A stretch of 64,000 nt of DNA from Fistulifera solaris (lineage: Eukaryota). The stretch is from contig AP026146.1 of assembly GCA_030295235.1 (NCBI GenBank), positions 1 to 64,000 on the forward strand. The letters are read 5' to 3'. The position numbers and the translations under genes were made by a program. The notes beneath the pieces are model-generated. The model did no database searches. It had not been told where the DNA came from and saw only the letters and a list, made by a program, of their open reading frames with translations. Below, piece after piece: positions 1 through 64,000 of this stretch; positions within the stretch are counted from its first letter, which is position 1, and every line of letters starts with the position of its first letter.

Positions 1-258
1 AACCCTAACCCTAACCCTAACCCTAACCCTAACCCTAACCCTAACCCCAACCCCAACCCTAACCCCAACCCCAACCCTAACCCTAACCCTAACCCTAACC
101 CTAACCCTAACCCTAACCCTAACCCTAACCCCAACCCTAACCCCAACCCCAACCCTAACCCCAACCCTAACCCTAACCCTAACCCTAACCCTAACCCTAA
201 CCCTAACCCTAACCCTAACCCTAACCCTAACCCTAACCCTAACCCTAACCCTAACCCT
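1..258 (+). repeat. Telomeric repeat array (CCCTAA)n = TTAGGG type, with scattered CCCCAA variants
   Basis: Continuous hexamer array from base 1; a short degenerate copy (ccccaaccctaac) lies at ~314-326. Confidence 0.99.
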
Positions 259-468
259 CAGGCTGGTTTTCGTAGTTCTAACTTAATTTCTTCCTATAGC
301 TGCGTTTTTTCCACCCCAACCCTAACATTGAAATGAAGGCTTCGACCAACTACTACGGTGCTGTATCGTAAGAAAGACAGAATAGCTTTTTGTTGCATAT
401 ACACGACGATATTACGATGTATTATACATTCATTTTAAAATGGTGAATCGCTACAATCACTCCCTTTT

Positions 469-44889: not shown

Positions 44890-45818
44890 CTCGTCGATCG
44901 AGTCGTGGTTAATTTTTCAGTTTCCTGTTGAATGTACTAAAATAATAAGTGAATTATTAAGGCCCCAGTACTGATTCAGAAAGCCGAAATCGTCGATTCG
45001 GCACAAGTTTATACTGTGTAATACGGGTATTAGCTCAAAAGATGTATAATCGACACCCTCCCTGGGCACGTCGTAAATTATTCCCGACACAATAAAGCCC
45101 CAATTCTCATACAAAACTGTACTTTTAGTCCGAGTACCGCTCTTTGAATAAAATAAAAGATTGTATTCTGTTATTAAAATATTTGCTTCGGTACGACAGA
45201 TGGTGACCAGGGAGCGGTGCAATACTGGAACAGCATACAAGTAAATGATCAGGGATGACGTCGAAATTTCAATTCAGCGATTGTAGCGAAAAAAGTTTTT
45301 TTATAAATAATTCCCGAAAAATTCTGCGATGACTTCTATGCTACTTGTATGTGTTCCACAAAATATTTTCATTTGATTATATTTTTATGTTCATGTCGAC
45401 ATAAAAATATTTCCGTTTGAAAATATTTTGGCGCGAGAATATACTTTTTCCTTAATCTTGTGATCTCGGATTCCGTCCCAGGAAGAATAGAGGAATTCCG
45501 TCGCCAAAAGAACTGTTGTGCAATAAGGTTAGTAAACCCCTGTCCCTGTCCCGTGTCTGCCTATCTCATTTTTTCTCATTTTTTGCGGTTCGAAAAGGAG
45601 GTGCGATGGCAGAGCAGAAGACAAGAGAAGCACGCAAGATACTTATCAAAGATCTTGAAAGCGGAGCGTTGCCCATTGACAACAAGGACTGCACTGAGGA
45701 AGAAGCTTGGGAGCGGTACAAAGGCATGATTGCCTTTCTTCATGTACCATACAAGCAATTCTTTACTTACCTCCAATAATCTTAATCGGTGATCCTTTGG
45801 GCGTCATGGCAAACAAAA

Positions 45819-48270
45819 TCACAATTTAAATTTTATGGGTATGGACAATGGGTATGGACAAGTAGTCTCAGTGAACCTTGTCACTTCTGTTTGGCGCAAA
45901 AGCATGCCAAAAAAGTTTTCCAAATGATCACAGTCAGCATGTAAATACAAAGTATAGAATGGACTATTTCCTTGGCCATTGTGTTTTGGCTTCATCGCAA
46001 TGCAGTGTTTGTTGTTGTGCGTAAGGGCTGGTTTCATGGACGGGCAATAAACTCCGCTTTAATTGTGTGGTAGTACATTAACAACTATAGTAAATACGTA
46101 GCCATTTGGAAGCGCATATTCTTGCAGGTGTCGTTTGGCAAATAAAGATATGAAAAATTGACCCTTCTTCATGCAAATTTCATGACGACATTGAACTCCC
46201 ATAGAAATTCGTGTATCACAATTGCATCGCTCCCCCATGGCAATAATAAAGCCCATCCTCAAGACCTCTACGGACAACTTTCACAGCATTATGGGGCATC
46301 AATGTTAAAATGTAATTGCTGGCTGCTGCTTTTTCGACACTCCAAATTTGTGAGTAAGCATATTTCGAAAGGTTATTCAACGCCTCAGATTCTGATGGAT
46401 CTGTCTTTGATAGTTGTTGTGAACGAATACTACAGTTCTGATGGTACTGAAGATCGGCTACATGATGCTGTTGTCCAATCTCATGCTGTCTTTGAAGGAG
46501 CTGCTCAACCTGTTCAAAAAGTTCACGTGATCCACCCGATCCAAGATGAGCTTGAATGCTGGAGTGATTGGCCTCGGCGGGAGTATCACCTTTTCTCCCA
46601 AGACTCATTGGAATGTTATTGATAACATAAGATGCACATTTATGAGGCTGGTTCATAAATCCCTCCTTGAAGTAATGGTACTTTTCAGGAGTAGCAATTA
46701 GGATCTCTGAAATAGCGGCACATGCTTGATCAAAGCCGTCCTTGGTTTTTGAGTTCAACATTTTGCGGGCATCATCTGAAATGCGATCAAAAGAGATTTT
46801 CCCAGCTCTTTCGGCCAAACAAAGTTGAGAAGGTGAAAATGGTCCCATAAAATACTTGTAGTGTCAGTAGAGAGTCCAATCATTGGAAGTAAACCGTCCG
46901 TCAAAAACAGTCCCCATAGATAAGACGGAGACTATCTTTTGGCCGACGGGCACCATGCTTGAAGAGATTGTTGAGAACAAATGCATAGGCAGAAGTGATT
47001 CTTCAATGATGATACATTCACAAACAACCTGCACCCTCAATTCTGCCGTCAAAACTACGGGACCAATGTAAGGCCAGTGGAGTACATTAAATTGACGTTT
47101 CATACTGTCGAGGTAGATAGAATCACCACATTTAATCCACGCTTTCTTCATTCTTCCAGTCATCCACCAAATTCCGATTGGCCTGCCAGCATTATCCATT
47201 GCAATCTCAAATTCAAAAGCAGGATCACTAGCCTTCAGAGTTTCAAGATATTGCTTAACCACCCAAGTACCATCAGAATTCTGCAATGTATCAAGTAGGA
47301 GCTCTTTAGCTTTTGAAGTTGCTTCATCGGGTAGACAGTTGAATTTCATCATTGCCGCCGAGTCCCTGTCTTTTTGCAAGGTTACCCATCTCAGTAATTG
47401 CAACATCTATGTTACCTGTCAAGTATGCTCGGCGCAATTGTACGGGCATTTCTGATATGATTTGCTGTAATGTCAACATCACTTGGCAGAAATTGGCATA
47501 GTATTACGCGGACTTACGTCGTTTCCCCGGGTAAGCATGGTACTAACAACCAACATTTCAGTCAGATCTCGAGGAAGATTATTGACAGAATATGCTCCAG
47601 AAGCCTTTTTAGCAAGAATAAGGCTTTCCTTCCCAATGGGATGATTGTGTTGACAGCAGTCAAGAGAGTTAATTTGTATCATAGTTTTCACCCGATTGTG
47701 GCTCTTGATTATCTTCAAGCTTTGATTCTTTTTGCTCATCGGTAGGATAATAGCCAGTACTTATTTTAAACTGGCAGCCCACTTTCTTGAGGGATTCACT
47801 ACGGATCCGTTTTCTTGGGTGTGGATACTTGAGACTTGTATTCATTATCTCGATTTTTCCCTCCGTGAGGAGCACAAGAAATAAAAGCCGTCTTCAATTT
47901 TGAGCTGAAAGCCCCACATTTTAGCAAGCTCCTGTGCCATTTGGAATGCTTGATAGATATTATAGAACAATCTTTTAGCTTTGAAGACCTTCGAAAAGGC
48001 AAGCTCGAGACGGGAAGTATTGCTTACAATACCATCATTTATGTCAATATCGGCATCTGGGCCATCTCCAATGACGGGTTTGCAGCAATCAATCTCTTCC
48101 CGTAGCTCTGGTGTTAGCCAGTCAAGCTTTTTCAGCATCAAAGGTTTAATACCAACAACGCTGGCAGCATCAATTGTACTTTGCTGGGGTGGAAATGGTA
48201 TGTTAAAAGCCGCACCCTGCTCAGATAGCAAATCGTTGTCAACAGAAATATCCATGTCTGTGTCTTCCAT
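45819..48270 (-). mobile_element. Mutator-like (MULE) transposase with SWIM finger, multiply frameshifted
   Basis: YLETLKASDP.FEF..D..GRP.GIWW, IYLDS..QFN..WPY, AEANHS, SWIM CNC.....GVQCRHE; N-terminal FAR1-like GFQ....F.C and K..C.F. Confidence 0.85.
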
Positions 48271-48780
48271 TGTTTGAAATAGTTATTGATATAATGGTTT
48301 GTGTTGCAGAGTGTGCAGGATCTTTGTAAAGCAAGTAATGGTTAGAGGACAAAGCCAAAAAGCGGCAATGGTTGCATAGATCATGCGGACCGCTCAACAC
48401 TCAACACTATAAGTTGGCCAATTTGCAACTTGGCCGAGAGATCTTGTGATCTCAAGAAACGAAAGTACACTTCTGACCTATATTTCATAATAGCCGTTAT
48501 ACGATGGTTACATTACTTAGGGGGGAGCAGTGCCGTTTCTGTGTGACGTAACAAGCGGTACCAACAGCCAATCAGAATGCGTTCACCCAAATAGTCACCC
48601 GAATAACGTTCACCCGAATAACAGTTCTCCCTTAAATTAGTAACCTTACTTCATGCGTTAAGCGTTAACCCTTCGCGAAAAATGCGTTTTCCATCTCGAC
48701 GCAGAAAAAACAGAAAGGAATCTGGAATCCAAAGAAAATATTTTCACTTCAGAATATATTTCGGCGCCAACATATATTCT

Positions 48781-48840
48781 GGAATGAAAATATTTTTATC
48801 ACGGAATGAAAATATTTTTATCACGGAATGAAAATATTTT
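48781..48840. repeat. 22-bp tandem repeat (GGAATGAAAATATTTTTATCAC), ~2.7 copies
   Basis: Units start at 48781, 48803 and 48825. Confidence 0.9.
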
Positions 48841-50747
48841 CTAGCCGAGATGTTTCATATCTATAGTGACAATTTCCTGTTGCTGTTTCAATGATGCAAC
48901 AAGATGATTTGTGTTTCAAGATCTCAAGTATAGATTTAAGCGAGAGTTATGGTTGGTTTAAGAAGTGGGTACACTCAAACCCATACTCGTTACTTTTCTC
49001 GCGACACTGATCAATACTGTAAACTGGGATAGGACAAACGATAAACCCTCCGGTACCGAATCTACTAGAATTGATCCGACTGGGATCGGAACGGTACTCG
49101 CATTGTTGTCTACGCAATATTTTAACGCCGTGCCCTGTAGAGGAACTTTTTTGTGGCTGGTGGCTGGTGGCTTTAATAATTGAACGACATACTGAATACG
49201 AAACAGAAATTGTAATTAGATGCTGAATAGTCTACTACCAGGTACGGAACCGAAACCTGTAAGTTGTAAGTGTTAGACTAATCCGTAGATGCAATCTCTA
49301 GGCCTCTAGAGGTGCCGAGTGCCGATCCAGAGACTTGTACAAGTACTTGGTAAGAAAGTGGCCAATATTTAACCCCTCCTTAATAATTAATTCGGATTTG
49401 GGGTTGAGCAATTCTACCAGGTATTGTGGGACCGTGAGTCACGGCTCATGACTCATGATTCATGATTCATTCAGCCACCGATGGGCAACGACCGATAACG
49501 GATGACGAAGCCTAGAATGATACATCATTGCGGCCATTAAGACCATATTGTGATCGAAAAATTATCTGGGGGTTCTCCTTTTATGGTTGTACCTTTATAA
49601 AGTTTTCACCACGACTTGCGCGCGAGCTATGGATCGTCGGCACTTCAATTTGCATGATTATTCGTTCACGATGAACAATCCTTACCTGAACCTCTCTTTC
49701 CATTAGGTAAAATAATAAGCGCACTTCTTCTCCAAGGTAGATCTCCTTGGTGGGGCAGCAACAGCATCGTTTATGCTACTTTTAGGATGTTTTACATAAT
49801 GTATCCACGAACGTGACTGAATCAGTCCCACAATGCCGTGTCCTATGTCCTTATCCGTCGGATCGACTGGCGTTGTCGTGGACCTGATCGAAAGCGTCTT
49901 ATGTCATTGGTGGTGCTTTCTTTTTTACAGTAAACTTATTAATCGAATTGGATTCGACGTTGGAGCATTTTTGTTAAAGACAGCACGACGCACGTCACCT
50001 CAATTGCGGAGCGAAATTTTCGACCTCATCCACATTTTTTAGTAAAGCTTGAAATTTGAAACGAATGACAACCACACACGTCATTGCAATTTCAAGATGC
50101 CCATCCTTCTCTTTGGCCTATTGTGTGAGAACCCCCTGGAGACTGCGGGAAATATGATAACTATGAAAACTGGAAATAACACGAAAAAGATAGGCATTGA
50201 TGTACCTGTAAAATGTCCTTTGAATCAAGGCGCACTGTTGATTTTTCTTTAAAAAACAGAAAAAATACAAAAAATGCGATTTTGAATTTTTCCTGGATGC
50301 GAACTCTGAATTCGCAGAGATTGTAGAAAAATTGCACACTGCAGTTGCCGGTGCAGTACTGTGCTACGTGCTACGTACCAAGTACGAGACGGTCATACGG
50401 ACCAACAACAGAGACTGAAATCCTGACCTCAGTCGTGGTTCGTAGTGCTGAAAAAATCGTGCAGCGTGGAGCGTGGAGCCTACAAAGTACAGTGGAAACG
50501 ATACACAAGCACATATATGACAATGCCACCATCCTGGCAACTGGCAACGACATTTGGCGATAGAGTCCTCGACTCCGTACACACACAAACAGAAAGTTGC
50601 GATTTGTCACGCTCTCGCACATTCAGCCATTCAGCTGTCAACAAGTAGAATTTTTCTTGGTGATTGGATCATCAAGTTACGATGAAGATACAGTTTAATT
50701 ATTCTTCTAATCAGACTAGAGAGTTCTTGAGAAGTGGGTGTTTCATA

Positions 50748-51612
50748 ATGGGCGAGTCGCTGGACATGCGCAGCTACAAGCCCACTTTGGTTCAAACGCG
50801 ACGCTTCATGTCGCACTTTGGCGTATCGCCAACACAATGCTCTCAGCTGTGGATCTTATTGAAAGTCCCTGAGAATGGACGCTTCAAGCATCTGCTTTGG
50901 GCCCTACTGAAATTGAAAGTTTATGCAACAGAGGAAGTTTTAAGTGGCATGGCCGGATGCGATGAAAAGACCTTTCGAAAGTGGTCCGACCAGTTTATCA
51001 CTGCACTGGCATTGCTCTCTACTCGATTGGTAAGTCTTTTGCGCTGATTACCTGTTGCACTTTGTATATCGCTAACAATATGTTTTCTTATAGATAAAGT
51101 GGAACAGCCGAACGAAATCTGGTATTCATACATTTTCGGTTGATGGGACTGACTGTCCGATTAACGAACCGAGTCCGTTTTCGCCCAAATGGTATTCGCA
51201 CAAATTCAGAAGCGCCGGACTACGTTATGAAATTGCTGTCTCGCTTTTTGACAGTGAAATGATCTGGATCAATGGCCCTTTTCCTTGCGGGGAATTTCCT
51301 GATTCAAAGATTTTTCGACGAAACCTTGCCGGTCAGCTTTCGAAGGGTGAAAAGGAATAGCAGACCAAGGCTATCGTTCGATCTCCCAGCTGACAATAAA
51401 AAAATCGTGGTCATCAGAAAGGGAAATTGATTTTGATTGGAAAAGCTTTGGCGCGTCATGAAAACGTAAATCAACGAATTAAGCGGTTTGGATGTCTGCG
51501 CCAGCAATTCCGACATGAATTGAAACGGCATGTTTATTACTTCCGAGCAGTTGCATCGGTTGTACAGCTTCGACTAAAAACCGATAACCCTATCAACTCT
51601 CTACCGAAGTAG
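50748..51612 (+). CDS. DDE_Tnp_4/Harbinger-like transposase; intron 51030-51093; frameshifts near 51350-51430
   Basis: HTH-like HLLWALLKLKVY..EKTFRKW; SVDGTDC, WYSHKF..GLRYE, NGPFPCG..PD..IF, ADQGY, ARHENVNQRIK.F..L...FRH. Confidence 0.88.
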
Positions 51613-51739: not shown

Positions 51740-53071
51740 TTACAGGTGCGAATCAAGGGCTTTTCGGTTTCTTGGCAGTGTGAACAAGGTTACTTGAAGT
51801 TTGGTTGCCCTCGTACACAACAATCTCCCCCCGTGCCTCGGTTCCTTTCCAGCGTCAACACTCGTACTGAAAAATTCAAAATCACGTTTTCCCAGTGATT
51901 CGTAATTCATTTCCACGTCAATTGGCACTTGATTTAGAGCCAATGCTTGTTCAGCTACGTCATCTGAAGGATTAGCTGGTATCGCAGCTATCGCCCTTGA
52001 GAGAGATGATGGTCGGGTAGGGCGGAGATTCGCGAGTCTTGCTGCAACACTTGGTATCTCTGCTGTTTCTCCTATCTTGATGGTATACCAAGCACCCATA
52101 TTCTCGTTGAATGCTGACATCAGTCCGTCGTTTGTCCCAGGTAGGTTGCCATGCACTTCGGATGTAACTAGCTGGTCTGCTGTTTTCTTTTGTGAATCCG
52201 TCCAAGTCTGGTCGAACGTTGAATCTCGGCCGCGGCTTTTGACCTTGCGGCTCATCTCATAAGACGCATCCGACACAAGGGCTTTGGTTAGTGAGCCACC
52301 CGAGCTTACAATGGATCTTTTCGAAAGCTGCTGTACAACAGTTTGCTGCTCCACGAAAGTAGAAATAAAAGAATCCTCGCTGTGTTCCTGCTTTGCTACA
52401 GTGACATCGCGTGCCAGTGTTTGAAAGACAGGCTGGTGGTTCGGTTGCTGAATCATGTCAGCCACAGATAGCTCGTTCAAAGCCATTTGCGGCTCCTGGC
52501 TCGACTCAGTAGAAGGAGTCGTGTCCATTCGATCCGGCATAGAAAGTGTTTTGAGCTGGCCGTGCTCCTGACCTACAAAGTTCAAAGAGTTACTTTCCAT
52601 TTCAATTGCTGCAACAGTATCTGTTTCTTCCCCAGATGTATTGTTCCTTCTAATGATACGGAAGGCTTGAGAATCAATATCATCCATTCTTTTCAGTGTG
52701 ACCGTGCCTTCTTCGATAGTCTCACGATGCGAGAACAGTATCTTCTTGCTGTCACCTTTGAGTTCCTTCATTTTCAGCCTATGCGCAACGACAAGCGGGT
52801 GATCCTCGCTTCTATTGCCGTAGTTGACAAAGAAATCGTCGCGGAACATGGCAGAGTCCGTGATGTCAATCATAATTTCAGTCCCTTCTTCATCAACACA
52901 ACATTCAACAATTTCTCTACCATATGCGGTTCGTTGACGGAGACCAGAAAGAAGGTTTGTGTATTGTGAAATGCGAAGATTGGCATGCCTATCATGCCAG
53001 CTATATATGAGGGACGCGGGAAGTTTCCCCTCAATAATGACGGTCTCTTCGCTCTCGCCAAACTCAGACAT
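51740..53071 (-). CDS. Transposon-borne protein A: putative HSP20/ACD-like N-terminal domain plus long low-complexity tail
   Basis: Long open ORF; KLPASLIYSWHD..RISQYTNLLSG..CCVDEEGTEIMI..SEDHPLVVAH aligns with 54233-54766. Confidence 0.7.
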   Translation of the reverse strand: MSEFGESEETVIIEGKLPASLIYSWHDRHANLRISQYTNLLSGLRQRTAYGREIVECCVDEEGTEIMIDITDSAMFRDDFFVNYGNRSEDHPLVVAHRLKMKELKGDSKKILFSHRETIEEGTVTLKRMDDIDSQAFRIIRRNNTSGEETDTVAAIEMESNSLNFVGQEHGQLKTLSMPDRMDTTPSTESSQEPQMALNELSVADMIQQPNHQPVFQTLARDVTVAKQEHSEDSFISTFVEQQTVVQQLSKRSIVSSGGSLTKALVSDASYEMSRKVKSRGRDSTFDQTWTDSQKKTADQLVTSEVHGNLPGTNDGLMSAFNENMGAWYTIKIGETAEIPSVAARLANLRPTRPSSLSRAIAAIPANPSDDVAEQALALNQVPIDVEMNYESLGKRDFEFFSTSVDAGKEPRHGGRLLCTRATKLQVTLFTLPRNRKALDSHL

Positions 53072-53580
53072 GGTTTTCGTGATATTTGTGTATTTTTGAA
53101 AGTTGGTGAGGCTTCTGAGATTCCGTAAGAATTTGGGCTTGACTGGAGAATCGGATTTGAGCTGTGACAAGAATGATGATGGCGGAAACCGCAACAGGCA
53201 GTGCGCACCAGCGTGTCGTCCTTTTCATCTCATCATCATCACACGAAAAACACACACACTCGAGACGACTCCTCCTCCTCCTCGAGACTGTCCAATCCAT
53301 CACTCAACACCTCAACACTCAACACACACACACACACTCGGTACACTAGAATGAGGGGAAGCGAAACTGGGAATGGAGCTACAGTAGAAACTCAGAGTAT
53401 GCATCTTGATCAGTAATCAGTCGTTAATGTTGACGGATCGAGTATCGAGTATCGAGTATGACAAAGGAAGAAGCTAGTTTAGAAAGATACAGAGAAATTG
53501 ACAGTTCAACGTGTTCCTTGTTCTCTATATACATTTTGTACTGAAATCATAACTTATTACTGAAAACATTACAGAAAAGA

Positions 53581-53838
53581 ATACCATAACATACCAAGAC
53601 ATAACATAACATAACATAACATAACCTAACCTAACATAACATAACAAAACATAACATAACATAACGTGTCTGAAAAATGTACTCGTGAATCGAGTAGAAT
53701 CTACACAAAAGTTGTACCATCTTTTTTTCGAGTAGTAAAAACATAACTGAACCTAACTAAACATAACAAAACATAACATAACATAACATAACATAACAAA
53801 TCATAACATAACATAACATAACGTAACAAAAAACATAA
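53581..53838. repeat. (ACATA)n pentamer microsatellite in two blocks, with CCTAA variants
   Basis: Blocks at ~53581-53665 and ~53740-53838. Confidence 0.93.
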
Positions 53839-54102
53839 AATTCCTTTGGCTCATTAGTACAGTGTACTGGGCTTGTTTAATCTATAACTATAGAACAATG
53901 AAGCGTACCAAGTGAAGTTTGATATTCATCATTATTATTTTACAGAAGACACACACACTTCGCAAGTTCTGGGCTTTTTTCGCTCCTTTGACAAAAGACC
54001 GAGCACGAGCAGTGCGCCCGCAGCAAGCACTCACTATGCAAATCGCTGCGATTCGTTGACCTTGGCCAAGCTCATTTCAATTGCATCTTGCATCTTGTTG
54101 AC

Positions 54103-54766
54103 AATGTCCTCTTGAAAAAATCCATAATGGCTGGTATGTAGCGTTCCTGTTTGATCGGCTTCAACAATTTCTTGCTAACTGATCCGTTTTCTTTGATGCT
54201 TCGACCCAGACTACGACGATAACGACGAACGTGTGAGAACCATTGAAGTCCCTGTCAAACTCCCAGGCTCACTCCTTTACAAATGGGAAGACCTGGAGTA
54301 CAAGCGATTGTCACAGCAGACAGTTCTGCTCTCTGGTGTTGACCAAGCGGATGTCCATTGCTCCATTAACGAGTCTCGGACCGAAACTGAGATTCGGATG
54401 AAGGGGGACAATTCGTACATGATGATGCCTGCAGAATTCTGGCGTGCTGTGTCACGCAACAACGGGGCTGCTTACTCGGAAACACACCCAAAGGTTGTCG
54501 CCCATATGAAGGCTATCAAAGACCTCAAGACGACATCAATGGCAAATTCTATTGTTTATGTTCACAAGCAGAAACTACCAATGGCGGTACTACCTAACTT
54601 TTGTTCGATTGCGGAGGAGTATCCGAGTGGATCTCGCATTGCTTTTATGGGAGCGCGGAACTGTCCTGAGATTACAGCAGGTTTGGAAATGCAAGGAGAA
54701 TACGACGGTTTCTATTCTCCTTTAGCTCAGGGTGCCAAACGCAATATTCGCATGCCTCAAACTTGA
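54103..54766 (+). CDS. Transposon-borne protein B: stand-alone putative HSP20/ACD-like domain; probable short first exon and intron ~54132-54208
   Basis: KLPGSLLYKWED..RLSQQTVLLSGVDQADVHCSINE..TEIRMKG..SETHPKVVAH..HKQKLPMAV; GTATGT..CAG intron candidate. Confidence 0.68.
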
Positions 54767-55003
54767 TGATAAAGCAATCTAGCATCAAATACATTACGAT
54801 ATACTATAATAGTTGTAGAAATATATACTAGACAAAGCCAATCAGCTTTTATCCTCGTAAGCGTTTAAGCTGTGGCGTGATTCGTATCAGTCTTGTAATG
54901 AGAGCCATCTTCGGCTGGCCAATAGGAACCGTCTTTGTCTTCTTTCCGTCATCCTTCTCCTTTTCATCTGTCTCATTCACAGTCTCAACCGGAACTCCTT
55001 TCA

Positions 55004-56255
55004 TCAGATGGTCAACAAAGTCGCGTAGGTTCTTCGTGCGGTCGGTCTCGCAACGTAAGACTTGCGTTTCTTGGGGTCTCGGTCAATGTCCATTTCATCG
55101 CCTTCATCATCATCTTCCGAGCGTGGAACATTTGCCGCAGCACCAGTGGCCGTTCCATCATTTGTAGCTACTACTGGTTCGTCATCATAACAAGTATCCC
55201 ATGCGACAGAAACGTTGTGGCTTTTGAATCCCTTTGCAAGGGCTTCCTTCATCTCCATGACAACGTATTGCTCTTGACTACCGTCTACTCCAATTTTGAG
55301 CATGACCAGCTGCTCGACCGTCGGGATATCAGGATTCCACTGAAGTTCGACTTCAAAAGGCAATTGGATGCGGCACTTTTTGATGATGCGCTTGCGAGGG
55401 TTGTTGTTCTTGAGAAGACGGACTGCAGTGTGGTGTCCGACAACTTTCACGTGCTCTGTACCGAATTTGGCGCGACCCCAGAATTTGTCGTAGAATTTGA
55501 TAGGATCATGGATAGTATCGTCAGTCACATCAATAGCGATTGTGGCTGTGAGGGAATTTTCAATGTACGCGGTGACGTAGCTCTTCAAACCACTTCCTGG
55601 AGCTGGAGTGCGCAGAAGCCTGCAGGAAGGCGTCGCGATAACTGTCAGATTCTGCGCCTGGTTTGAACCCATCCATCCGATCACAAGGTTCGGCAGCACG
55701 ATTTCTTCCGAGTCTGGCTTCTTGATGTCTTTCTTTGGTGTTGCTTTCTTCTCAGCATCACCTTCCGGATCCAAGTTCATGCCTGTAAAAAATGGAAATT
55801 TGTCAGATAGAAGAAAAAAATCTAGAAGCAGAAGAACGCTTACCACCGAATTCATTGTCTAGATCACCCAAACCGGCATCGCCGTTATCATCATCGTCGT
55901 CGTCGTCACCACCACCTTCGTTTCCCGCATTTCCCCCATTTCCCGCTGCTCCGGCCTTTGCAAGAATTTCTGGGTCGACTTCGTTGGTGTCCAAGATTTT
56001 GAGCCACTCTTTTTTCTTCCCATTCCAATTCTTCCGAATCTTATCAAGATTGGCGGTAAAGTTGGCCAATTTGTATTTGAAGAGAGGGCTCATGGCTCTC
56101 ACCTCTGCCGGTCCTTGACCACCAGCAGATTTACTTTCGACTGAAATCATCTTCTTGCTCAGCATGAAGATGAGAGTGTGCCAGCCCTTTGTACCCTCGC
56201 CCCATTTCGGAAGATTCGCATCAACGTCGTCGTCGTTGTCGTTTTTCTTTGGCAT
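55004..56255 (-). CDS. Transposon-borne protein C: N-terminal helical (putative DNA-binding) domain, acidic linker and putative HSP20/ACD-like domain; intron 55783-55843
   Basis: GTAAGC..TACAG intron joins ORFs 55803-56255 and 55004-55855 in frame (EFG-G-MNLD); GTEHVKVVGH and CRIQLPFEV match proteins A/B; may extend to ~54850 through a frameshift. Confidence 0.72.
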
Positions 56256-57705
56256 TGCTGATAAGATCTGTTGTTATTGTCGTTTGAAATGCGCCGCAGA
56301 GTGATTTGTGATTATTTGTGGGAGTTCCCGGCCCTCGTGATAATTGAAGGTTGACGATCAAAGTGCGAGATGGAGAGAGGAAGAGAACGGCAATTCTTCC
56401 ATGAAACTCTCCTACTACTTAAGAGAGTCTCAATGGAGACTGTAATGCTTAGCGTGGAAAAGGACGATGTCGCCAAGACCACCTACTATTCACGATATAG
56501 AAGAAGTCACGAGTGCGAGCCGATCATATGACAGTACCGCGTTCCAAATTGAATTGTTAATTGTTACTGCAATTTCTCTCACAGTCGGCAGTCGGCATTC
56601 GGCATACAGAAATCAATTTGCGGCAGGTGGCACTAGTTGAATGGGCTTATGACGCGGCAGGCTATAAAAATCAAAGCTATTTTTGATCATTGTTACTACA
56701 TAAAAATTTCTTGAATGGTGCGTGGCAGTTGGCAGTGTTACTTCGCAACTTCCTACTTCTGACTCCAGACTCCAGACTCCAGATCGTACAATAATCCTTT
56801 ATTCCTTCAGACTTCACACTTCACACGCCGCACTCGACAGTCAATCACAGGAAGACACAGAAACTGAATGTGCTACAATGTGGATGATAGTGAACAACGA
56901 CGATAAGAACATCGAGATTTTTATTTACCTTTGAGTTTGGACCCTCGACTGCTCGACTCGGCTCAAGGTTTTCCAATCTTGTGTCGTCGGTCCGTATATA
57001 CGTCACAGGCATCGGCAGCGGACTGACGGCCTCATTCGACTCCAGTAACGCTGAAACCGCGCTACCAGGTAAGCGTGAGCTAAGTTCTCAGCCACGAAAA
57101 ACTCAAAATCTCATTTTTCGTATTTTGATCTATTTTTATGTAAAGTAGCAGCAGTTTGTCCATTTTTCGAAATTTTGCAGTTGAATTAAACAATAAATTT
57201 TCATGTTATTTCCATTTTTCATAATTATCATATTTCCCGCAGTCTCCAGACACACTTGACACCCGGTTTCTTCGAATGTGTCACATTTTCCTGGGTGTCC
57301 GAAAGAAGAAACAGGAACCGGTGACGGTTTTTAGTATCTGCTACAATGTGGCATGGCGAAGGTATGGCACTTCAACCGGGTATTATAGACTTATTTGTAT
57401 AGTAGTGGTTAGGCCATGCCCATTCATCGACCGGAAGGGAAAAAAAAGGAAAAAAAACGGACTTTGAGTGCCACATCCACTTTCCCGGTACTCAAAGTCC
57501 ATTTTTTCGGCTCGGCAAACTCGGAGTTTGCCAAGAAAAAAAATGGAGTTGCAAACTCGGAAAAAATCGAGTTGAAAAAACAGAGTTCGTCCGTAGCACC
57601 GTTTTCCGCCTTTCTCCCCAAATTATTGAACGTCGGCATATCAAAATCTGCCATTTCTATAATTACTTTCTCTTTATTCCACTGTCTTTCCTATCAGAAA
57701 ATCTC

Positions 57706-59637
57706 ATGAGTAACTATAATACCCCCTTGTTGCAACGTGTTGCTGAAGGGAACCTGCCTGTTGATCCGGCTAGCACGAGAGCCGATGATTCCGGCTCAGT
57801 TGGTGACGAAGCATCACAAGAATGAGAGCCGAGAGCTCTGATATGGACGAGGCAGTCGCTCGTTTGGCAGACCATGGGAGTATTGATTCCGACGATTCTT
57901 CTGATGAAGGCGTACTCACTCCAGCTGTCCGTTCAAGAGTACGACCAGGAAATCTCAGCAGTGGTAGTGCGAGATTCCGCTTCCAGTCGCCCCATTTGCT
58001 TCCACCCCAGTTCCTCAACATTCTGTCCAATCTATTTTCGAAGAGAATGGTGGCAAATTGGAATTCCTGTGGGTTTTTTCGATTGGTATTTGTGTTGAAG
58101 GGCAGCCATTATTGTCCCTCGATACAGATCCTCTTAAAACTCTTTGTCTTCAACTTGGTAAACGCAACATTACACCGAACACAGCAATGTTGCGCGAATG
58201 AAGTCGTCAGCGCCAAGATCCTCGGAAAGCCTGAAAAGCCCAATCACTGGTCAAAAACGAAGGCGACTAAGTGGTTAGAGGAAAACCCAGTCACCAAGAC
58301 TGAGGACGTTGCTTTTTTGGTATTGCAAGTTGACAAACTGAAGAGATTGGAATGCGGTCAAGATGCGGATCAGAACGAAGCTTTAAAAGGAAAACAGTGG
58401 CGCGACCGTCTTCCATTTCTGCGTTTAATGCATTGCCTGTTGGACAATGAAGTGAAGCGGTTGTATTTGAGCGGTATCGGTGTCTCAGCCGACCTGAATT
58501 GGACGGCAAGGATTCCGATGTTGCACCGCCCTGATTGGAAGGAGTTGTTATCCGCAAAATGGGCAGATCCATCCTTCAACCCATTGACAAAAGCCTCTTC
58601 TGTCCATGTTAGTTTCAAGCATCCTATTGCTCTTGACTATGAGTTGGTCAAAGATTATTCGCACCCCAATCCTGGTGCCTGCGAGGACCGCCCTGCAGGC
58701 CATGAAGGTTGCAATGTACCACATCATGAAGCGCTGGGAGGCAAGTGGTGCTGGTGACTGTGGACTCATGCCAACCACAGACCAAGATCCTGACATGATG
58801 GAGATAAATCCTGACCCAATCGTGGTACTACTTAATAATGACGCAGCATCGAGCGCAAGTAATGTTGCAAGTGAGGAACAATCGGAAACAATGGTGGCAA
58901 TTGCCGAACAACCAGCACAGGAGTCGGAGCTGGTGGTTATCCAGGAAAGTCGGGACATAGCGGAATTGGCAACCGCGACCGCAAGTAACACCGGTGCTAC
59001 TACACGAAAGTGGGGACACGTGTGCAACTATTCACCCACATCGGACAATCGCTACAGTTTCTTGAAGAAGAATGACCCGCCGTATCTGCTCTACTTTTGG
59101 GAGTTGCTGGATGAAAATGGTTTGCTGAGCACAACGCTACAGATGATCTCTTCTCGAGTAGCATCGTCCCATGGTCGAATGGACCTCACACCACTCGATA
59201 GCCTGACTGCTTCCCGCGCATCAAAATCTTCTTCCGCTCGGAAGTCATGGTCAGCGATTGCTTTGAAAAATTGATCAGTGTCATCCAGACTACTGAAGAA
59301 GAAAAGTGGGTCCAGAAACGACAGCTGATCGCCCAGGAAAGGGAAGAGAAAAAAGCAGCGCTATGATCAAGAAAAGAAAAGATCGGGAGGAGGCTGACCG
59401 AGTGCAGTTCGAACGGGAAAAGCTTCTCCAGGAAAGAAGTGCTGATCTCAACCGAAAGGCACTTTTCGATGACAAAATCATTGTTCTGGAAAAAAAATCC
59501 ATCATTTGGAACGGAAATTGGAAAAGACTCCTAACGAAGAGAAAGATGCAATCCAAGATGAGATATTGGATGTGCGAGATGAACTTGCAATATTGGAGGA
59601 CAAGGTTGAATCATTGGAGAAGAAACTCAATGGGTAA
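57706..59637 (+). CDS. Harbinger second ORF (putative DNA-binding partner with coiled-coil tail), frameshifted
   Basis: Chained ORFs 57822-58757, 58606-59274 and 59306-59686 inside the TIRs, convergent with the transposase. Confidence 0.7.
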
Positions 59638-59665
59638 AGTGCACTTATCTCGAAAGCCTAAGTTA

Positions 59666-61045
59666 CTAGTTCGTGTTAATTTGTAATATCACTTCTTCTA
59701 CTTTTAATGTCTTCGGCGGTTGTGGAATTGGTCTTCGTTCTCCCGTGATAAGTACATGCCTTAACATAGCCTCACGAGGCAACTCTCCTTCCTGGCGTTG
59801 ATTGATTCTTTCAGCACTCCTTCTTGAACGTAGATCATCGGAAGTGGTGACCACCACCAACAATGATGTTGGTAACGATTCACGAGTGCCTGTAACGGCT
59901 TCTGTCATCTGGACCGATCCTTGCTGATTGAAACGAATGTGAATCTCGTCCGCATCATCCGGGGGCAACCTCATCTTTCTCATCAATGCAAAAGTTATGC
60001 AGTTTAGCCAAAGCAATTACCAAACGAATGGTCTTCCCGATACTAACACCCCTTGGCATTGCGCTACGCAAAATCCCCCAGCGTTGGACAAGAATACCGA
60101 AGCAACACTCGACCACCAATTCGGGAGCTGTGAATGGAAAAAATTGTACCAATCCTCTGGACCCCCTGACACGTTCGGGATAGGGAGTAGCAAGGAAGCG
60201 TGTTGACGTCGCGTTGTCTCCAAAAATGCAGAGACCTTCCGCTAGGTAATTTGGGTCTTCGTCACACTTACTCCACAGATGGCTTGCTTCGAAAGCCAAT
60301 AAGTCAGATGTAGACCCGGGATACACGATCGATATATCTAAGATCTTGCCATAAACGTTGCTAACGGCCTGGCAGTTCAGACCAAACTTGTGCTTTCGAT
60401 AGCAAAAAAAACTTACCGGCGTCAACATCTGCTGCGTTTGCGTCTTTTTCAAAAGGACGATGAGTCCAGATAAGAATTCCATCTACTGCTCCAGCACATC
60501 CCGAAAAGCCCACGTTGGATTTTTTCTGAAATTCGGCTGCAATCTGAAGCTGCTTCTCATGATCGTCAGGATAACTAATCTCCATGACTGGGCAAGCATT
60601 GATGGCTTCGACAACATACCAAACGCTGTACATGCAGTCCGTAAAACCAACTCCATACAATGGAGACAAATCATACATAGAGCCTCCCGCAAAGTAGCGA
60701 AGCTATGGCAAGTCGCACCTGAGTATCAATTTTCCCATTTGGAGGCAGCGGTACGAATGTACTTGTGATACTGGACCCAACCTTTCCCCTCTTCCGGTTG
60801 ATAGAAAATTCAATGTGAGGCTTCAATTGATTGTAAAGCTTAACAAATGACACAAATGTCATTCTATAAGCGCGGCGAAAATAGTAATCACCGAGCTGAT
60901 GATAAACATCCTCAACTGAGCGTCGAGTCCTGCTTATGGTTTGTTTCCCAAACCGACTTCCTCTCCTTTGCTTCTGTAATGTCGCCACATGCATCAAAAG
61001 TAGCATGCCTACACAGGCATAATGATTTGTTGGTGACGATACCAT
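59666..61045 (-). CDS. HARBI1-like Harbinger DDE transposase, frameshifted
   Basis: FRRAYRM...SF..L, GCAGAVDGILIW, RKHKFGLNCQAV, YPGSTSDLLAF, IFGDN, VECCFGILVQRWGIL, KLHNFCID. Confidence 0.93.
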
Positions 61046-61597
61046 CCTTTCTGATATTGATACCTGGTAAACTGAAATGTCGGCTTCACAAGTTGTTGGC
61101 AAATTGTGAAGCGCTCTATTGTGTTTCCGTACGACTCTGCTAAAATGAATCACTAATCAATTTTTTTACCTCATTTTTTTTTCTATTTTGGAAATGATGA
61201 ATGGACATGGGTGAGGACTCCGGTGGTTGAGGACCTCTACCGGTAGTCACAACGGCACCCAAAGTCCATTTTTTTTTCCTTTTTTTTTTCCTTTCGGATC
61301 GATGAATGGCCAAGGCCTTACAGTGTTTAGGACAATGAAAAGGTGGAAATTGCGAGCACGAAACGTGAAGGCGTAATAAGTGTGCGGCCGATGGTCACCA
61401 GTCGCCATCAAAGCTATGTTTCGCTTTATTCATTGCATTCAAAACAAGAGCTCGTTGCTTTTTCTCATTCTTTTTGTGTCTTCTTCTATTGTTGAAATCA
61501 AATACACATAGCAATAAAAGGAAGAGACGCTCCGGATCATCGCATCATTCTCTCGCGTCTTCTTTACACTATTGTCATCATCTTTGTAGGTAGCATT

Positions 61598-61981
61598 ATG
61601 ACAACGTCCTCCATTCTCAATACTCCTTCGGTACCTCATCGTCGAATTGCTGCTGTGAAAGCCCTATTGGACCCACCGGCACGTCCACCCCGTCGCACGT
61701 GTTCTGTTCAGACACTGTCCGCCTTGGCGACTTCTTGCCCCGCGGATTTTCCTTTGACCTTGACGACGCCCTCTTGTAGTAGCCCTCGAGACATCTTTCG
61801 TCTCGAACCACGATTGTTGGCAGCAACATCTTCCTTCTGTGACCAAAGAGTCTCCTCTTCGTCTACAGCAGTAAGTGCACGACTTCCCCGGATACGAGAT
61901 TTATTTGAGGAGGAAGACAAAGAGGACCTTCCTCCGTGCAAACGTCTCAAGATGCGTCCTTCTACGACCTTGCGTTGGTAA
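61598..61981 (+). CDS. Small hypothetical protein
   Basis: 127-aa ATG ORF, Ser/Pro-rich, ending PPCKRLKMRP; no recognised domain. Confidence 0.4.
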   Translation: MTTSSILNTPSVPHRRIAAVKALLDPPARPPRRTCSVQTLSALATSCPADFPLTLTTPSCSSPRDIFRLEPRLLAATSSFCDQRVSSSSTAVSARLPRIRDLFEEEDKEDLPPCKRLKMRPSTTLRW

Positions 61982-62492
61982 AGCCAAGCCTTCTTGAATT
62001 GCAATCATAACGCGCACTATTTGGATTCTACGCTAGAATCTGCTATCTCATACTATACTGCTTCGAGAAGAAGGAATCATCATTGGGAGGATCGACGTCA
62101 ACGAAACACTTTGTGACTGATTTCTTCCCCCCTCGGACTGTTTGTCTATTTCTCTACATGTCTATACCTATGTTCTTACTGTAATAACTGCTAGTTACAT
62201 TTCTATTATAAATGCCTTTCAATAGTTTTATACGGAGTACGTTTTTATCGATTCTTGCTGTTTCAGTGACAAAACAGAATGAACGGACAAGAGCATCAAG
62301 CATCATCGGCATGGTCCCAGTACTAGCCGAATTCATTCCCGAGTAATAGAAAATAAGCCTCAAACGACAAAGATAATCATATTTTCTTTCATTAGTTGTT
62401 ATTTTGATCCCACTTTCATTCACCTCTATCGCTGCATCGCTACATCCTGCTCTCCATTCGTTCCATCGCCGCTCTTTTTCTTCCAACTTCTT

Positions 62493-64000
62493 CTACCACA
62501 AATGAAATTTGGGCAATCGATGCATCACTTCGGCTTTCAACACTAAGGGCAGCGCTACGGGGATCACTTTGAGATCGGGAGACAAGGCCGACGCAATCCC
62601 TTCCATGATTTCGACGGCCAAGGCGGCACTGACAAAACTCGGTTCCAATTTGACCTTGTGCATACAGGCCAAGTAACAAATGTCCACAATGTAATCACCG
62701 ACATTTTCGACAAAGTTATTCCCCTTATCGGATTCCACAATCTTTTGAATGCCTTGAACAAAGAGTTGCACATCGACATCACTGGCTTGATGTCGTGTGG
62801 ACGACGTATCGACCATGAGTTGTCCCGCCTTGGTGCCATCCTGTCGTGTAAAGGCCCCCAAGATCTTGACAACATTCACGTGTTGTTCCGGTCCCATTTC
62901 CAAGACAATTCCACAATCGAGTAAATGTAAATGGGGCTGTTGTGTTTCTTCGTTCCAACTGACCAGTATGTTACCCGGATGCAAGTCTGCGCGAGGATGA
63001 AAAGTAATAACAATAATAAGTAATGAGAAAGTATGTACGTTTGTGAATGAGTGAAACAACGAAAGAGAGAACAAGTCAAGTCAAGTCAAGTCAAGTCAAC
63101 TCAACTCAACTCAACACATTATGAAACGTACGCACCGCCATGTAAGAAATCATCCAAAAGATCATTTTCAATGTTGTTTCCAATCCCAACAAGGCAACTT
63201 GTTGTCGAACTTTTCCGAATATTTTGTTTCGTTGGTAAATTCCAAAATGGGCGTCCCGTGAACAAAGGTTTCTGTCAAGACTTGTCGTGTCGTATACTTC
63301 ATCAAGGGCGTGGGAAACGATACACGAGGATTGGAAGCGAAATTGTGTTGAAAGCGTTGTAAATGTTGCGCCTCCAAGGTCAAATCCAATTGCGGTAACA
63401 TGATATCCCGAAATTGTGTCACGGTATCGACCAAACTCAAATACTGCAAATTCAAATACGGCAAGGCTTCCAACCATTGTGCGACTTTGGCCATGATATA
63501 AAAATCAACACAAACTTTGTACAAGATTCCTGGATGTTGGACTTTGACCGCGAGCGGTGTCCCGGAAGGATACTTGTCGTAATTGTGTAACAAATGACCT
63601 TTATACACTTGCGCAATACATCCCGAACCAATGGGTGTTTGTTCCAAAGCCACGTGTTGTAGAAAGTTGGGTGGTAATTGTTGGACGGTTTCTAACCAAC
63701 TGTGTCCTACCGTTTCATCACGCAATGCCCCAAAATACGAACAAAATTCGGGTGAAAACAAATCGTGTCGTGTCGTGGCCCATTGGACCAATTTGACAAA
63801 GGTCGGTCCCGCTTGTTCCAATCCCCACAATGCGTATTGCCAATGATATTGTTGCAAAGTCGTTGAATATGCCGCGAAGGGATACAGTAACACAAAGGGC
63901 GTCGCGAGAGCTGTCAACGACAGTAAACGTGTCACGGCACGATACCATCGTTCTAGTTTGGTCGAACCTAATTGTGCCAACAATTCATCCGTCCAATCTT
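62493..64000 (-). CDS. ABC1/ADCK (AarF/UbiB) atypical kinase, 5' end outside window; intron 62987-63135; frameshift near 63190
   Basis: GPTFVKLVQWA.TR.DLF, IGSGCIAQVY, AVKVQHP, QLDLTLEA, HG|DLHPGNIL, LLDCG. Confidence 0.93.

Follow-up and report, generated by a model that had tools for sequence, protein, structure and literature searches.

A 7.1-kb DNA transposon of the diatom Fistulifera solaris carries a two-exon gene that encodes two folded domains on either side of an acidic linker. The element lies in the window, by which we mean the whole 64,000-nt stretch analysed here (contig AP026146.1, positions 1 to 64,000; G000:C35:1-64000 in our coordinates, from a genome of 51.7 Mb), where inverted repeats bound it at 50139 and 57246. 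Besides a short DDE transposase it holds gene B on the minus strand, gene A on the plus strand and the fused two-domain gene, whose helical N-terminal domain and C-terminal domain we call the N-domain and C-domain (Table 1). We favour, with a little more than even confidence, a reading in which the fused gene encodes the non-catalytic second protein of the element, equivalent to the second open reading frame (ORF2) of Harbinger transposons, and in which A and B are duplicates of its C-domain that tune the resulting complex.

An initial annotation of this DNA had proposed that a 61-bp GT-AG intron joins two listed reading frames in frame. Joined from the ATG at 56255, the letters of the window give a product of 396 aa. 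By itself this in-frame join is no evidence for an intron, because 106 GT/GC-AG pairs (53 of them GT) in the tested range yield a product of more than 250 aa; the GTAAG donor is unique, among the candidate pairs tested, to the 55843-55783 intron, which has the donor GTAAGC and the acceptor TTTTTACAG. An alternative donor, also in frame, lies at 55846. What makes the intron credible is that its splice position is conserved in a sister element (G000:C8:729649-736472) and in three outside relatives. In the sister, the same codon is interrupted by a phase-1 GT-AG intron of 60 nt (G000:C8:734464-734523), whose ends and branch-like motif, CTATCTGAC, are kept and whose body has diverged. The Logan proteins P0002, P0004 and P0005 enter the same donor, reading G-K there; P0002 and P0004 stop just past it, and P0005 continues in frame into the second domain. 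Two GenBank proteins, P0001 (GAX10919.1, FisN_UnNu022, Fistulifera solaris) and P0003 (GAX10090.1, FisN_2Lu362), are already joined at the intron position, both gene models being predictions. Since the intron is stop-free and in frame in the sister and in P0005, a fused protein would result there even if the intron were retained.

Could the join be a construct of gene prediction, covering either two separate genes, the second starting at the exon-2 ATG at 55780, or a retained intron and a 150-aa N-domain protein only? The many chance pairs are compatible with this, and GenBank models may be ab initio; against it stand the donor, phase and position kept across relatives and the domains that remain joined under retention. 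An ATG does lie right after the acceptor, but the residue before the exon-2 Met aligns with a non-Met residue in the sister, and just 61 nt separate the two frames. P0002 and P0007, called as separate proteins, both list 2707 as their longest contig, which suggests that they may come from one locus. We regard an artefact as very improbable. The conserved splice position instead indicates that the intron and fusion are real and form one two-exon gene, as first proposed; the fusion is not hidden, as had also been claimed, in that the joined protein is already annotated in GenBank as hypothetical protein FisN_UnNu022 (443 aa).

We compared three sequencing runs (X1-X3) with positions 53900-64000 of the window, a range beyond which the transposase and gene B lie. 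The product read from the window departs from P0001 at aa 188-193, at 322 and from 383 onward, and run X1 has indels at these points. The tail of P0001 can be followed, in other frames, as far as 54868, so that the stop falls at 54867-54865. The real protein has 443 aa and terminates near 54865, and the stop at 55004, where the initial annotation had ended the gene, results from single-base assembly errors. In practice, such errors in the repeats of the window shift gene ends. Run X1 is DNA-like, with a single contig that is unspliced across both introns and the terminal repeat, and it may be the data from which the window itself was assembled. Runs X2 and X3 have contigs over gene A and a host gene at 62-63 kb and none on 54911-57600, and the junction of the fused gene is neither seen nor excluded in them. 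The 76-nt intron of gene A is spliced in the X2 contig, and gene A is covered in X3 too. Thus, at least one accessory gene of this transposon family, A, appears to be transcribed.

Comparison with the sister element shows purifying selection on both domains of the fused gene, with dN 0.30 and dS 1.45 for the N-domain (99 codons) and pN 0.20 and pS 0.77 for the C-domain (120 codons, saturated). The corresponding dN/dS values are 0.30/1.55 for gene A and 0.27/1.92 for the domain of gene B. Judged by these rates, all three accessory genes (fused, A and B) are maintained as proteins. Homologue searches gave 2, 0 and 3 matches, with low sensitivity, as P0003 was missed by the word index; a phmmer sweep gave 6, one of which (P0006, a Diplonema repeat protein of 4650 aa) was spurious and set aside. 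No homologue was found in metagenome scans, nothing reached the cut-off for the accessory proteins in Pfam, PHROGs or NCBIfam, and PDB sequence searches returned nothing under E 0.4.

The N-domain is predicted to be a compact three-helix fold of the helix-turn-helix (HTH) class, an assignment supported by its structural neighbours, among which DNA-binding HTH proteins make up most of the top 50 rows. It is net basic, with 16 K+R against 10 D+E, and its long third helix has 9 against 3. The initial annotation had quoted an N-terminal motif with spaced aromatics followed by an Asp run, and 14 residues of that motif are invariant in all five aligned sequences (W18, G24, W25, L28, M31, L32, P49, R53, S56, F59, Y61, F66, N69 and R74). 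A third Trp position is W in three of the five. GARP-type Mybs also lack the full Trp set, and a third helix like the GARP motif SHLQKYR looked plausible by eye and was rejected for want of profile support. Of the HTH/Myb fold originally suggested, then, the model suggests the HTH class, and Myb is not matched by sequence: the N-domain belongs to no Pfam family, is absent from the genome's 66 PF00249 matches and reaches only E 0.14-0.34 by hhalign. Nor does it have the three conserved tryptophans of Myb/SANT/trihelix ORF2 proteins (PMC5339849). In the ESM Atlas the N-domain had no match at 0.9 or above, and the top rows, at 0.88 (DUF4747), are a lead only.

If the N-domain were instead an FF-like or KIX-like protein-contact domain that does not bind DNA, the fused protein would adapt the HTH-bearing transposase to host chromatin or transcription factors. 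The basic third helix, the invariance of N69 and R74 and the predominance of DNA-binding HTH proteins among the structural neighbours all argue against this, as does the finding that second proteins of PHIS (Harbinger/ISL2EU-like) elements bind DNA where tested (PMC9710019). We consider it quite unlikely.

The C-domain is homologous to genes A and B (hhalign probability 95.6, E 1.2e-8), as the initial annotation had recognised in describing an 'ACD-like' (alpha-crystallin-like) domain common to the three. Its layout, taken from the alignment and a poor model, would be four strands, two helices that form a 40-aa insert, and three strands. The insert (F..FW...H.KVVAH) is conserved and holds most of the invariant residues. 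As model pLDDT is 25-52, fold searches on it carry no weight, and the ESM Atlas gave no usable match for this domain. A strict ACD is not supported. The C-domain has no Pfam match to HSP20 (PF00011) and is absent from the genome's 10 PF00011 matches; a plasmid search for further HSP20s found none. Against 8 HSP20s of the genome, hhalign gave E 0.46-0.74 for the whole or fusion-only profile and 0.06-0.18 for A and B alone, where CS against HSP20, the positive control, gave 1e-5.

The signal is better on the CS side. Against 8 CS domains (PF04969) the C-domain scored E 0.015-0.021, with none of 200 shuffles as good and the reversed profile at 0.5, and strands one to four align in register, the first with a Y/L-x-W pattern like that of CS domains. 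With CS and HSP20 pooled into one profile, E fell to 0.004-0.005, where a C2 query gave 0.31 and a PH query 0.89; in the control matrix, unrelated pairs scored 0.027 at best. Once the helical insert was excised, 93 of 150 shuffles reached the HSP20 score and the CS match was unchanged. Features that recall the HSP20-like superfamily (PF00011, PF04969) are the first four strands, in both order and spacing, together with an LP/G turn and, ahead of the last strands, an LPF-x-V segment; the missing Pfam match, the weak profile E-values and the conserved insert set the C-domain apart. In ACDs, the dimer loop and a C-terminal I-x-I/V motif serve oligomerisation. In the C-domain the loop position is presumably occupied by the insert, and the alignments show no conserved I-x-I/V after the last strand. 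On this evidence, membership of the HSP20 superfamily is about evenly balanced, with the weak signal pointing to its CS/p23 side, and a true oligomerising ACD is improbable.

A more distant element of the same genome (G000:C7:79813-85280) bears on the role of A and B. Its transposase is 41% identical over the searched piece, and its single accessory gene (L053:1508-2791) has a 74-aa helical exon, a 75-nt phase-1 GT-AG intron, an acidic linker and a related C-domain (E 0.009 against the fusion profile over 117 columns, with an LPFEVE motif in both). The domain was spotted by eye, the C-domain profile having missed it at E 5 among 3135 six-frame ORFs from the window and 7 regions. The match of the helical exon to the N-domain is not significant (E 0.25), and the intron position differs. 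We saw no A- or B-like ORF in this element, and it may represent the state before duplication; should the homology hold, the fused form is the basic one, and A and B were duplicated from it later. The best reading of the sequences is that A and B arose from the C-domain inside the element. The C7 element, with a similar gene and neither A nor B, also argues against recruiting A and B as the core job of the C-domain.

In its strongest form, the proposal of the initial annotation makes the C-domain an HSP20-superfamily oligomerisation module, through which the fused protein on element DNA nucleates a hetero-oligomer with A and B that shields the element from silencing or concentrates transposase. 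Three paralogous domains kept under purifying selection in the window family and the sister would suit this, as would the splicing of gene A in an RNA-like run, the in-register CS/HSP20 match and plant precedents (PMC10651127, PMC5339849). It is weakened by the absence of signal for HSP20 proper, the shuffles that equal its score, the insert at the presumed loop position, the lack of I-x-I/V and the retention of a like domain in the C7 element. In addition, including the C7 domain as a tenth, distant member dilutes the signal to 0.072 (CS) and 0.016 (pooled clan), and alone it gives 0.53 (HSP20) and 0.74 (CS). We judge this model unlikely, and recruitment of A and B through ACD oligomerisation is conjecture. 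Similarly doubtful is an elaboration in which an HSP20-superfamily module was captured by diatom PHIS transposons and fused to their DNA-binding helper, and was expanded in the present family to three genes; an assembly with A and B, nucleated by the fused protein on the element ends, would then engage host chaperone or silencing machinery through CS-domain mimicry, or limit its own transposition through a headless competitor.

The ORF2-equivalent reading that we favour builds on the gene structure established by conservation, on selection, on the fold class of the N-domain and on the paralogy of the C-domain with A and B; from these we infer that the fused protein binds DNA at the ends and contacts the transposase, and that A and B modulate the complex. 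The basic N-domain would bind the long, imperfect terminal repeats of the element, and the acidic linker would be flexible. A beta-sheet domain that may belong to the HSP20/CS superfamily and keeps a conserved helical insert, the C-domain would serve in protein contacts, recruiting either the 288-aa transposase or another copy of itself, so that the ends are paired. The mechanism is modelled on Harbinger3_DR, where a Myb-like protein attaches both to a subterminal 9-bp motif and to the transposase (PMC9710019). A and B have no DNA-binding domain; most probably they adjust the complex, either as competitors for the same partner or as bridges to it, and are not its reason to exist.

Like the Myb/SANT/trihelix helpers of PIF/Harbinger elements (the Myb-like protein of Harbinger3_DR and the domesticated HDP2, NAIF1 and ALP2), the fused gene is the second gene of a PHIS element with terminal inverted repeats (TIRs) and 3-bp flanks, and its protein falls within their 300-450 aa, with a predicted N-terminal three-helix HTH-class domain, an acidic or disordered linker and a C-terminal region (PMC9710019, PMC5339849, PMC4482050). 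It differs from them in its lack of a Myb/SANT Pfam or profile match, in having two invariant Trp 7 residues apart rather than three, and in a folded 170-aa C-domain that was duplicated into two more genes, giving four genes in 7.1 kb. The initial annotation had the fusion replace the Myb/SANT ORF2. An ORF2-equivalent role is retained here, but replacement is not: the fused gene is most likely this clade's own ORF2, because a related helical domain adjoins related transposases in the same genome (a weak match, E 0.004-0.008). Near such related transposases we also noted ORF2s of two or three helical repeats (G000:C7:117174-117950, C15:196348-197133, C12:1094331-1094906 and C18:358243-358818), and in two of these elements an ORF with a glycine motif that we take to be KOW-like (C7:120922-121488, C15:197743-198207).

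PHIS groups and their second ORFs have been described (PMC4482050), and extra genes occur in PHISTA and HarbingerS (PMC12730594). The second ORFs of the Pangu/Harbinger2 group have no known motif, NuwaI makes CWG duplications and a third PHISTA protein lacks Myb/SANT (PMC4482050, PMC12730594); the Harbingers of Ectocarpus carry two genes (PMC12477816). Plant IDM2/IDM3 and ACD15/ACD21 are precedents for an ACD acting with a DNA reader: ACD15/ACD21 multimerise MBD5/6 (PMC10651127), and IDM2/IDM3 serve the anti-silencing IDM complex, which contains the Harbinger-derived HDP1/HDP2, although neither HDP1 nor HDP2 bound IDM2/IDM3 directly in the assays of that paper (PMC5339849). CS domains also occur in piRNA factors (PMC12526068). 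Unlike the plant adaptors, which are host genes, separate polypeptides and true ACDs, the fused gene is transposon-borne, and the likeness noted here is one of design.

Harbinger transposition with two proteins is known, but most accessory proteins of stramenopile elements have no assignment. The present element is a compact, recently multiplied test case: it has a 288-aa transposase, a putative helper with two folded domains, and two duplicates that lack the N-domain and are under selection. If the C-domain is HSP20-like, the transposon's own genes would use the reader-plus-ACD design by which transposons are silenced or protected in plants; otherwise the domain represents an unassigned family confined to transposons of diatoms. 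The gene combines an unassigned two-domain architecture with the unusual triplication of one domain within an element. Literature searches, which did not extend to Repbase, gave no paper on this element or its architecture, or on PHIS elements that encode HSP20, ACD or CS domains; the novelty may be affected by diatom Harbingers entered in Repbase.

Table 1. Features of the element, in window coordinates.
Feature	Position	Strand	Remarks
Left terminal inverted repeat	50139..50305	+	begins GAGACTGCGG; ~170 nt, imperfect
PHIS (Harbinger/ISL2EU-like) DDE transposase	50682..51612	+	intron 51030-51093; weak Pfam HTH_Tnp_4 E 0.039, DDE_Tnp_4 E 0.059
Gene B, same domain N-terminal plus long low-complexity tail	51740..53071	-	blastp A vs B E 2e-12
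Gene A, domain-only paralogue	54127..54766	+	76-nt intron 54134-54209; GT..AG joint in run X2 contig
Exon 2 of two-domain helper gene, true extent (aa 138-443 of P0001)	54865..55782	-	P0001 tail mapping, run X1 indels
C-domain, aa 166-335	55190..55699	-	common to genes A and B (hhalign); possible HSP20-superfamily (CS/p23-like) fold
Intron, 61 nt, phase 1, GT-AG	55783..55843	-	same position in sister element and P0002-P0005
Exon 1 of two-domain helper gene (aa 1-138; helical domain and Gly/Asp run)	55844..56255	-	100% identical to P0001 aa 1-138
N-domain, predicted three-helix HTH class, aa 11-103	55947..56225	-	helices 23-33, 49-53, 63-87, 95-101
Right terminal inverted repeat	57083..57246	-	

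The element is a recently multiplied diatom PHIS transposon, with the dispersed copies, terminal inverted repeats and short target duplication of that type. At least three other copies (four including the window) are 98.7-99.3% identical over the full length, among them G000:C8:935230-942298, and at least one sister element is ~70% identical in nucleotides; these counts are lower bounds. The TIRs begin GAG, and the 3-bp flanks are CNG in all five copies (CAG, CTG or CCG) rather than the TWA of canonical PIF/Harbinger elements. The two sides are identical in three of the five. They are unequal in the window copy (50136-50138 versus 57247-57249) and in the near-identical C8 copy, perhaps through recombination between copies or an assembly mis-join. 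The window transposase has two indels that are absent from the other three near-identical copies, and the C8 copy gives a 288-aa frame. The related transposase in the C7 element passes the DDE_Tnp_4 cut-off (27.2 versus 24.8 bits). Because all copies carry scattered indels, intact ones cannot be told from this assembly.

Several further features lie in or near the copies. A degenerate (CATAA)n microsatellite occupies 53540-53868, between the divergent genes B and A. The C8 copy ends ~1 kb from an HSP20 gene proper (G000:C8:943252-943545), probably a coincidence, since none is listed near any other copy. A short-period, telomere-like tandem repeat fills window 1-318 at the contig end, 50 kb from the element, and the C10 copy lies 8 kb from its own contig start. 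Another inverted-repeat element, at 45360-48840, has a transposase that is MULE-like by motif reading, with no Pfam match, and carries at 45546-45776 the helical repeat of PHIS ORF2s (46% identity, E 9e-12), a hint that superfamilies share domains; by BLASTP, the N-domain gave no alignment with the window ORF at 45.5 kb. A second, unrelated Harbinger element with 50-nt inverted repeats begins 160 nt past the first (57408-61321). It has a DDE_Tnp_4 match (E 2.9e-15 at 59958-60482) and an ORF2 (57.7-59.6 kb) disrupted by indels that are in part contradicted by run X1.
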